From assembly GCF_003334385.1 (NCBI RefSeq), contig NZ_QOWN01000025.1: a stretch of DNA of 64,000 nucleotides; one strand, given 5' to 3'. The stretch comes from Escherichia coli (GTDB taxonomy: Bacteria > Pseudomonadota > Gammaproteobacteria > Enterobacterales > Enterobacteriaceae). The translations under genes were made by a program, and so were the position numbers. How positions within the stretch are numbered: position 1 is the stretch's first letter; each line of letters begins with the position of its first letter. Of this stretch, positions 37,052 to 49,197 are shown piece after piece. Below the pieces are notes generated by a model. The model saw only the letters and a list, made by a program, of their open reading frames with translations, made no database searches and was not told the DNA's origin.

Positions 37052-38035
<984 letters not shown>

Positions 38036-38116
38036 GCGTTTCTGATTCATTGATTAAAGGCCAGGCAGTAACATTACTGACTGGCCTCAGATTGTTGACC
38101 AAGTGCGCGTTGTACA

Positions 38117-38216
38117 CGCCGGATGCGGCGTGAACGCCTTATCCGGCCTACGAAATCGTGCTAATTCAATATATTGTGGGCTCCACGTAGGCCTGATAAG
38201 CGTAGCGCATCAGGCA
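38117..38216. repeat. REP/BIME between yfeX and yfeW
   Basis: gccggatgcggcgtgaacgccttatccggcctac and ggcctgataagcgtagcgcatcaggc palindromes. Confidence 0.8.
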
Positions 38217-38274
38217 GTTTTGCGTTTGTCAGCACTCTCAGACCAGCCAGTAACATTACTGACTGGCCTTTTTA

Positions 38275-39576
38275 TTACTTCTGCTTTAACGCCGCATACA
38301 CCTGATCAACTACCCAACCATAAGTTGCAATCGGCAACTGACCGCTTTCGAACATATTGGGATTCTTTTGCGGATCGGCAACCGGCGAATGTGGCTTGTT
38401 GCTTAACATCACAATCGTCATATGATTCACCGGATCGATAACGGTCACCGTTCCGGTCCAGCCAGTGTGACCGTAGGTTTGCGGGCTTGCCAGCGTGCCA
38501 AACGTCGGCGTCATGGTGGCATTACCATTCACGCGCCAGCCGAGGCCAAAAGTGGCATCTTCCTTAGAGCTGGTGGTGAACATCTTCACCGTTTCCGCAT
38601 TGAACAGCTGCACATCACCATAGCCCCCGCCGTTCAGCATCGTTTGCATTAACACCGCAATATCGCCGGTATTGGAAAACAAACCTGCGTGCCCGGAAAC
38701 GCCGCCCATCGAATAAAAGGCTTTTTCATCGTGCACCTGACCCCAGAGAGTGGAGGTGCGGATATTCGGGAAATGGATCACGCCATCGCGGGTATTGCCG
38801 TTCAATTCCGTGGCGGCAATTTGTTGCGGTTTAAAGCCTTTCAGCAGCGGGTTAAATACCGTATGTGTCAGGCCGAGCGGGCGATAAATCGACTCTTCAA
38901 CATAGCGGTCAAGCGGCTGACCGGTAACCGACTCGACGATAAATCCAAGCAGCATATAATCGACATCGCTGTAGATATGTTTGCTGCCGGGCTGATATTC
39001 CAGCGGCGTGCGCTTGATCATCTCCAGCGTCTGGCCTTTATCCTGGGAATATAACGCGCCCGCGACCGCTTTATTCGGGTATTGCGGATCTGCCGGGAAA
39101 CCGCCGCTGTGATGCAGCAGGTCAGAAATCCGCAGGGTGTTTTTGCCTTTAATGGTGTCATTTGGACTATCGGCAAACCCCGGAATATATTTCGCAATCC
39201 GATCGTCAGGATGCAGTTTGCCTTCGCTCATCAGCTTTTGCAGGGCGAAGTTCGTGGCGTACATTTTGGTGTTTGAGGCCAGGTCATACAGCGTCCCGGT
39301 GGTGGCTTTGACAGGCTGTTCCATCAACACGCTGCCATCGTACTTTTTCGCCGCTCCCCAGGCTTTGCGATACACAATCTGATTATCTTTAATGATCAGC
39401 AGGTTTACGCTGGGATAACCGACATCAACTTGCTGGCTAATCCAGCGATCCATCTGGTTAAGCCGTTCGACGTTAAACCCTGCTTTCTCTGGCGAGCTTT
39501 CTGTCAGAACAGGGTATTTTGCGGCGCTGACGCTACAACTAACAGCCAGCAGAGAAAGATAGAGCATTGTCCGTTT
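38275..39576 (-). CDS. yfeW: penicillin-binding protein 4B (beta-lactamase-fold DD-peptidase) YfeW
   Basis: ORF 38275..39666; Met at 39576 gives about 433 aa with signal peptide; SxxK-type motif SNTK. Confidence 0.88.
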   Translation of the reverse strand, partial: KRTMLYLSLLAVSCSVSAAKYPVLTESSPEKAGFNVERLNQMDRWISQQVDVGYPSVNLLIIKDNQIVYRKAWGAAKKYDGSVLMEQPVKATTGTLYDLASNTKMYATNFALQKLMSEGKLHPDDRIAKYIPGFADSPNDTIKGKNTLRISDLLHHSGGFPADPQYPNKAVAGALYSQDKGQTLEMIKRTPLEYQPGSKHIYSDVDYMLLGFIVESVTGQPLDRYVEESIYRPLGLTHTVFNPLLKGFKPQQIAATELNGNTRDGVIHFPNIRTSTLWGQVHDEKAFYSMGGVSGHAGLFSNTGDIAVLMQTMLNGGGYGDVQLFNAETVKMFTTSSKEDATFGLGWRVNGNATMTPTFGTLASPQTYGHTGWTGTVTVIDPVNHMTIVMLSNKPHSPVADPQKNPNMFESGQLPIATYGWVVDQVYAALKQK

Positions 39577-39583
39577 CATGATA

Positions 39584-49009: not shown

Positions 49010-49048
49010 GGATTAATAGCATCGGAGACTGATGACAAACGCAAAACT

Positions 49049-49150
<102 letters not shown>

Positions 49151-49197
49151 ACAAAGCGCACTTTTTTAACAGTTGTTGCTGCCGACAAATGCAGTAT

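Follow-up and report, generated by a model that had tools for sequence, protein, structure and literature searches.

Among the repeats of E. coli, REP/BIME sequences are the most abundant. The closest described relatives of the element that lies between yfeX and yfeW are those termed BIME-1, RIP or RIB (Gilson 1991; Bachellier 1994, 1997; Oppenheim 1993; Boccard and Prentki 1993), which it resembles in its inverted Y and Z1 units, its long conserved linker of the IHF type, its conserved outer motifs and its extragenic position at the 3' ends of genes. The presence or absence of a BIME-1 among isolates has already been documented (PMC1187871). BIME-1 has been described as a single-copy element (PMC3333891), whereas tandem units of a hairpin plus BIME-1 are found here, seven of them at yfeX in Escherichia sp. 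MOD1-EC7003 and two at tkt. Reviews present REPs as lacking the signatures of MITEs (PMC3184786), and the mechanism by which REP/BIME sequences insert is called unknown (PMC3333891; 2026 preprint 10.64898/2026.03.23.713779). In the literature on these repeats we found no description of a target duplication the size of a palindrome, which the Bachellier reviews of 1997 or 1999 could contain, nor of terminal inverted motifs as element boundaries or of hairpin-containing tandem units, on which older papers may differ.

The REPIN with its RAYT, an HUH Y1 transposase, offers a second comparison: two inverted REPs with GTAG and CTAC heads are present in both, and most of the junctions described below read ...C^T. 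Unlike a REPIN, the present element is accompanied by a duplication of 19-28 nt and has its ends outside the REPs, in the terminal inverted motifs. The IS200/IS605-type HUH transposases are reported to leave the target unduplicated (PMC3333891, PMC2817692); where an HUH-type insertion should leave no duplication, one of palindrome length is found at four loci. The likeness to MITEs such as Correia and ERIC is also considerable, in that the element is short and non-coding, has terminal inverted repeats, is bounded by direct repeats that are single at empty sites and folds into a long hairpin. The duplication made by a MITE is fixed at 2-10 bp by its transposase, whereas here it ranges between about 19 and 28 nt, in step with the length of the target palindrome; since its length follows the structure of the target and not the enzyme, this is an atypical transposon footprint rather than that of a standard MITE.

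Bacterial class C group II introns, like some other elements, reportedly insert just past the stem-loops of intrinsic terminators, as Robart, Seo and Zimmerly are said to have described in 2007. By that account they share with the BIME-1 copies treated here an insertion site set by a terminator hairpin rather than by sequence, and a position at the foot of the stem; they differ in being retroelements whose insertion is one-sided and leaves the hairpin unduplicated. An insertion polymorphism with long direct repeats, single-copy at the empty site, is known from H. pylori (Nobusato 2000), and so far as that case is recounted in PMC1643837 it involves restriction-modification genes on the kilobase scale and variable, non-palindromic repeats, as against a 154-nt element and a palindromic repeat at yfeX-yfeW.

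The hairpins and the element in the yfeX-yfeW spacer

The window, the whole 64-kb stretch of E. coli DNA analyzed here, is K-12-like, and a window coordinate equals 2587681 minus the MG1655 coordinate. Within it yfeX, encoding a porphyrinogen/Dyp-type peroxidase (CDS 37136..38035, + strand, stop codon 38033-38035, placed by the list of open reading frames and the annotation of identical E. coli records), converges on yfeW/pbp4B, encoding penicillin-binding protein 4B (38275..39579, - strand, stop codon 38275-38277, annotated as a gene of 1305 nt). Their spacer is filled by a hairpin, a BIME-1 and a second hairpin, the last of these separated by 6 nt from the yfeW stop codon. The protein cluster built on exact YfeX also lists CysM, CysA and pyridoxal kinase, which looks like an oddity of look-up or labelling, not biology.

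Hairpin copy 1 (GGCCAGGCAGTAACATTACTGACTGGCC, 38059-38086) and copy 2 (GACCAGCCAGTAACATTACTGACTGGCC, 38241-38268), neither of which was assigned a strand, begin 182 nt apart. The preliminary description had presented them as near-identical 28-mers in direct repeat, and they were found there with identity at 26/28 positions; copy 1 is identical to the single hairpin of alleles that lack the element, and copy 2 carries the two substitutions, at position 2 (G>A) and position 7 (G>C). The same copy-2 substitutions as in K-12 are present in two further occupied E. coli alleles. The repeat is far above chance expectation, and a search for a third hairpin-like match with at most three mismatches gave none in the 64-kb window and none in 100 shuffles. 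Compared by eye, the copies show 2 mismatches as a direct repeat and 5 as an inverted one, and the CA loop and the internal mismatch, both asymmetric, correspond when the copies are read as direct, which makes the copies direct repeats. An inverted duplication of the hairpins, as the 47-nt inverted repeat spanning both might suggest, was rejected on this agreement of loop and mismatch asymmetry. That inverted repeat (81% complementary, hairpins included) reaches past the hairpins because it takes in the terminal inverted motifs of the element, and these are seen in paralogues as well.

Each copy had been said to fold into a hairpin, and the computed folds agree, with copy 2 the weaker on the + strand. 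On the + and - strands copy 1 folds with -20.4 and -19.7 kcal/mol and copy 2 with -11.3 and -20.8 kcal/mol, respectively; the weakness of copy 2 on the + strand is due to its two substitutions, each of which disrupts a pair there, while on the - strand both become G.U pairs. The hairpin itself matches no Rfam family.

Between the hairpins a REP/BIME had been placed at 38117..38216, and the two REPs do occupy 38118-38215, inside a complete element of 154 nt at 38087-38240 (+ strand) that paralogues and the family alignment delimit as 5'-TCAGATTGTTGAC...GTCAGCACTCTCA-3'. It begins with a left terminal motif (38087..38117), which repeats the right end imperfectly in inverted orientation and was recognized from the inverted repeat and the family alignment. 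There follow, all read on the + strand, a Y-type palindromic unit or REP with CTAC at its end (38118..38151), the L linker (38152..38186), a Z1-type palindromic unit or REP with GTAG at its start (38187..38215) and the right terminal motif AGTTTTGCGTTTGTCAGCACTCTCA (38216..38240). The two REPs were drawn from repeats and the family alignment, and the right motif from these together with the paralogues. The Y and Z1 units are thus in inverted, head-to-head orientation. The linker carries a putative IHF-type site, AATTCAATATATTG (38163-38176), which resembles the consensus and is kept in 18/18 aligned family members. Rfam returned REP-related matches below threshold only, to naRNA4 and ES036, the latter in the linker (E=0.013, below the gathering score).

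The terminal inverted repeats, in which TCAGATTGTTGAC pairs with GTCAGCACTCTCA, have ends conserved across the family. An alignment of 18 sequences gives these ends as 5'-TCAGATTGTTGAC ... GTCA(G/T)CANTCTCA-3', and they coincide with the boundaries of the indel at yfeX; the element is therefore complete, with its family ends, and the 182-bp indel consists of one BIME-1 and one hairpin. Searched alone, the 154-nt element finds a near-full-length match in 5426/5426 complete E. coli genomes, with coverage of at least 80% of the element required for a paralogue to be counted. In genomes without the yfeX insertion the best match is the BIME-1 between fepA and entD, at about 90% over 153 nt including the non-REP ends. 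The family is dispersed and multi-copy, and all of the BIME-1 copies examined are intergenic; by every sequence criterion applied the yfeX element is a BIME-1. At yfeX the window and the sampled E. coli genomes each have one unit of it, a count that covers the matches listed for the E. coli junction query and leans on the joining of match pieces, which is weak evidence.

A second BIME-1 lies in the window at 49025-49177, in - orientation, just 3' of cysM and 88% identical to the yfeX copy. It has no hairpin repeat around it and marks the breakpoint of a strain-specific segment. The K-12-like order at that locus (cysM-BIME-yfeS) is found in 1382 genomes, nearly equal to the 1400 with the yfeX insertion; in sampled other genomes homology ends about 10 nt before the element, and cysM adjoins yfeK.

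Occupied and empty alleles, their age and copy number

The full hairpin-BIME-1-hairpin allele occurs in 1400 of the 5426 complete E. coli genomes. In most of the others, sampled at even spacing along the ranking, the locus is shorter by exactly 182 bp, a figure that holds for the sampled REP-less alleles with yfeW intact. The aligned empty alleles (DETEC-P61, O157:H7, Ec-U10 and 2009C-3133) have one hairpin and no REP. This hairpin, AAAGGCCAG(G/C)CAGTA...CTGACTGGCCTTTTTATTAC, folds with about -21 kcal/mol on both strands and lies between an A-tract and a T-tract, and it has the form of a bidirectional intrinsic terminator, canonical on both strands.

The preliminary description had read the arrangement as a REP block inserted into one terminator, with duplication of the hairpin. 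It had proposed looking in genomes without the REP for a single hairpin, and had named two hairpins at such a locus as the observation that would speak against it. A single hairpin is what all sampled REP-less genomes carry, in a locus 182 bp shorter where yfeW is intact, and that adverse case appeared nowhere among the sampled alleles. The insertion reading is favored by these empty alleles, by the discreteness of the element and by the three further loci described below.

Some sampled records depart from both forms. In E. coli O25b:H4 ST131 most of yfeW is deleted (L006:2688-2830, corresponding to window 38314-39496) and the single terminator hairpin is kept. About one in five E. coli records in the sample aligns with the query on its yfeX side only. 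E. coli Iso00041 (L005:460-1210, corresponding to window 38059-38290) has an IS200C 5 nt past the single hairpin, with junctions CTGGCCTTTTT|GTGCAC...TATTTATT|ATTACTGC, so that a second HUH-family element has landed at the foot of this terminator.

The arrangement at yfeX is not confined to E. coli. E. whittamii has the two hairpins; in Escherichia sp. MOD1-EC7003 the 182-bp unit, with copies about 96% alike, is repeated seven times in tandem, giving eight hairpins; and E. albertii has hairpin 1 and the element, followed by a deletion that begins exactly at the element's right end. The E. albertii deletion (L012:1119-1323, corresponding to window 38241-38894) has taken out copy 2 together with about 650 bp from the 3' part of yfeW and is followed by another gap. 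Elements at the yfeX locus of E. coli, E. albertii, E. whittamii and MOD1-EC7003 have in common the derived characters GACCNNG, GTACAC, ACGAAATCGTGCTAATTC and GTCAGCA, which are missing from eight paralogues, and the simplest reading of these is a single old insertion that has been inherited. The C at position 7 of the hairpin proximal to the T-tract is likewise common to E. coli, E. whittamii and MOD1-EC7003. The 2/28 differences between the hairpins fit an old insertion, which places the identity of the copies at the time of insertion beyond demonstration.

Judged from these alleles, the yfeX locus is in effect a variable-number repeat, whose 182-bp unit is present 0 to 7 times in Escherichia genomes. 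Since the insertion is shared with other Escherichia species, the empty alleles of E. coli may be scarless losses rather than the state before insertion; loss through the 28-nt repeats and the original state look alike in sequence, and either may account for the zero-unit alleles. The abstract of Bachellier's 1997 paper reportedly speaks of "excisions of a whole BIME-1". Salmonella and Citrobacter showed no yfeX-yfeW junction, yfeX being followed there by cysP, with unrelated hairpins and no yfeW, and they thus provide no outgroup.

The age of the occupied allele, present in several Escherichia species, and the certainty that deletion between repeats can yield a single-hairpin allele would both suit a history in which the two-hairpin state was original, the BIME-1 having come to lie between tandem terminators or between hairpins that had converged, with the single-hairpin alleles as deletions. 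We regard such a history as extremely improbable. No sampled yfeX-yfeW allele has two hairpins without a BIME-1 between them, the 26/28 match rules out convergence, and four pre-existing tandem terminators would be needed, each with hairpins specific to its locus and each hit exactly between its copies.

The MOD1-EC7003 genome contains further tandem arrays of BIME-1 (L026:2652-3545 and L024:9423-9817). One has eight units with a period of 107 nt, made up of the REP-linker-REP core only, and another has three units with a period of 130 nt, in which the spacer AGAATAACGCAGAG repeats the left flank.

Further loci and the manner of insertion

Species-representative genomes were scanned with the right end of the element, and E. 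coli genomes were then searched. Three more independent pairs of occupied and empty sites were found, at ysgA-metE, at ccmH-narP and between tkt and a prohibitin family gene, all of them between convergent genes. At ysgA-metE the occupied allele is that of E. albertii (...ACGGGTGGCGTTGCCACCCG, BIME-1, ACGGGTGGTGTTACCACCCG...), and all sampled E. coli have a single hairpin in a locus shorter by 170-171 bp. At ccmH-narP the occupied allele (GCCCGATGGTGATGCCATCGGGCT, BIME-1, AGCCCGATGATAAATCCATCGGGCT) is present in 1505/5426 E. coli, and the remaining E. coli have a single hairpin and are shorter by 176 bp. The tkt locus has one or two units of BIME-1 plus AGGGCCGCGAAAGCGGCCCT, and none at the empty site.

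The flanking repeat is single-copy at the empty site in all four cases, and the element ends are unchanged. Without gaps the direct repeats measure 30 nt at yfeX-yfeW, 20 at ysgA-metE, 25 at ccmH-narP and 22 at tkt, and the local palindromes, as read by eye, 28, 19, 23 and 20 nt, respectively; the length of the duplication is not fixed and varies with the palindrome. The hairpins of the four empty sites fold with -20 to -23 kcal/mol and have A- and U-tracts alongside. At all four loci the duplicated segment is the local palindrome (about 19-28 nt) of a predicted terminator, and by these comparisons the finding at a single locus extends to a recurring insertion signature.

We think it probable that at yfeX-yfeW a BIME-1 inserted into a single bidirectional terminator, that the palindrome was duplicated in the process, and that units were later lost or amplified through the resulting repeats. 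The ancestral yfeX-yfeW spacer would have held one palindrome with an A-tract on one side and a T-tract on the other, serving both genes as a bidirectional terminator. The palindrome would have been extruded, as a cruciform or as single-strand hairpins, and each strand cut at the foot of its hairpin, so that the stagger equaled the length of the palindrome; the 154-nt element would then have been joined in, with gap filling copying the palindrome onto both sides. After insertion each gene would still have a hairpin and a U-tract, now beyond the element. As direct repeats the hairpins could later allow recombination or slippage that removes the 182-bp unit without a scar or amplifies it.

Strand cuts at opposite ends of an extruded palindrome appear to be the most likely mechanism. 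Their polarity is not legible in the sequence and could be at the 3' feet, as in HUH enzymes, or at the 5' feet, as in DDE enzymes. The foremost candidate for the cutting enzyme, by analogy, is the REP-associated tyrosine transposase (TnpA_REP, RAYT), whose substrates are single-stranded REP/BIME hairpins and whose cleavage site is C^T (PMC3333891). Junctions reading ...C^T on their own strand number 6/8 overall, with both junctions so at 3/4 loci; those of ysgA-metE are G^A and G^T. This agreement may be trivial, given that a C closes a GC-rich stem and a T opens the tail of a terminator. The fuller proposal, that BIME-1 is or was mobile and targets extruded palindromes of bidirectional terminators by concerted cleavage at their feet, possibly through TnpA_REP at C^T, is accordingly put forward as a tentative one, more doubtful than probable.

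The duplication is not universal among BIME-1 insertions. Several of those sampled, including fepA-entD and the window copy at 49025-49177, have a hairpin on one side or none. At nfsB-ybdG, where the genes are co-directional and the empty site is the K-12 allele, no clean second hairpin was found in the occupied allele, and the BIME-1 stands at the 3' foot of the hairpin (CCCGGC^TCAGATTG). Such sites bear on a two-step origin, in which BIME-1 would first be placed at the foot of a hairpin without duplication and a separate later event would add the second hairpin copy. An element and hairpin without a clean second copy, as at nfsB-ybdG, L014, L016, L017 and L022, are what its first step would leave, and transposition of the IS200/IS605 type leaves no duplication (PMC3333891). 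We nonetheless hold it to be quite unlikely: no known process copies a palindrome of 19-28 nt across a 154-nt element to abut its end, four loci would each have required such an event independently, and the one-sided cases are more simply seen as loss or decay of one copy, comparable to the deletion at the element's right end in E. albertii.

At the nfsB-ybdG empty site (L043:190-260 compared with L022:7130-7345) the sequence TCAGATT, which forms the first 7 nt of BIME-1, lies 9 nt past the hairpin, and in the occupied allele it stands on both sides of the element; this may be microhomology or chance. A BIME-1 of E. whittamii (L020:2804-2994) is flanked by a 21-nt direct repeat, 81% identical and weakly palindromic (TCCATCGCTGATGAATTCAGA / TCCATCGCTAATAGATTTAGA). 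At the rhlE-ybiA locus the unoccupied genomes show no simple empty site.

Palindromes stall replication and promote template switching. The same product of hairpin, element and hairpin would result if, with no transposase, a strand stalled at the hairpin had copied a BIME-1, whether one at another site or an excised one, returned upstream and copied the hairpin again. "Insertion with long target duplication" has a precedent in other bacterial DNA (Nobusato 2000, to the extent that PMC1643837 relates it). The inserted DNA has the same family-specific termini at four independent loci, which implies a donor with defined ends and points to an excised element over arbitrary switch points, and the element ends show no evident microhomology with what lies upstream of the hairpins. 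Template switching is on these grounds an unlikely source of the duplications, and insertion of an excised BIME-1 between opposite-end cuts is preferred.

The four natural pairs define where the element goes (the palindrome of a bidirectional terminator, between genes that converge), what footprint it leaves (a second copy of that palindrome) and what becomes of it later (loss without a scar, or tandem amplification, by way of the two hairpins). They make the spread of REP/BIME sequences to new sites open to experiment. If the target is indeed recognized by its structure, the elements would land in terminators, explaining the occurrence of REP/BIME sequences at 3' ends and in bidirectional terminators, and the BIME family would have its first concrete signature of insertion. 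It has been reported that 78 REPs lie within 306 bidirectional terminators, an overlap that may partly reflect the insertion of elements into terminators.

Candidate terminators and predicted transcript ends

In the preliminary description only copy 2 was followed by a T-tract. This stands for the + strand, on which TTTTT (38269..38273), then ATTAC, lies 3' of copy 2 and copy 1 has no U-tract; it does not stand for the - strand, on which copy 1 is followed by UUUAAUC. Copy 2 with UUUUU, its stem bearing two mismatches (-11.3 kcal/mol), is accordingly the candidate intrinsic terminator of yfeX, and copy 1 on the - strand with UUUAAUC (-19.7 kcal/mol) that of yfeW. The TTTTT tract of copy 2 is also found directly 3' of the single hairpin in the empty alleles. 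A scan for terminators by simple consensus called nothing in the yfeX-yfeW spacer, and the supplements of PMC12207403 (Term-seq) have no entry for yfeX or yfeW.

The hairpin that each gene meets first in the occupied allele is without a U-tract. Since hairpin and U-tract together now lie beyond the element, both predicted 3' UTRs gain about 182 nt and take in the REP hairpins, and the practical consequence for yfeX and yfeW would be strain-specific 3' UTRs. The full 3' UTRs have minimum-energy folds of -98.8 kcal/mol (z-score -6.2) and -105.6 kcal/mol (z-score -8.7), each forming one long stem. When the whole spacer is folded (38040-38285, both strands), hairpin 1 pairs with hairpin 2 and the element ends pair with each other, giving a hairpin of about 216 nt, which as RNA would form a long duplex and as single-stranded DNA a long palindrome that could promote instability.
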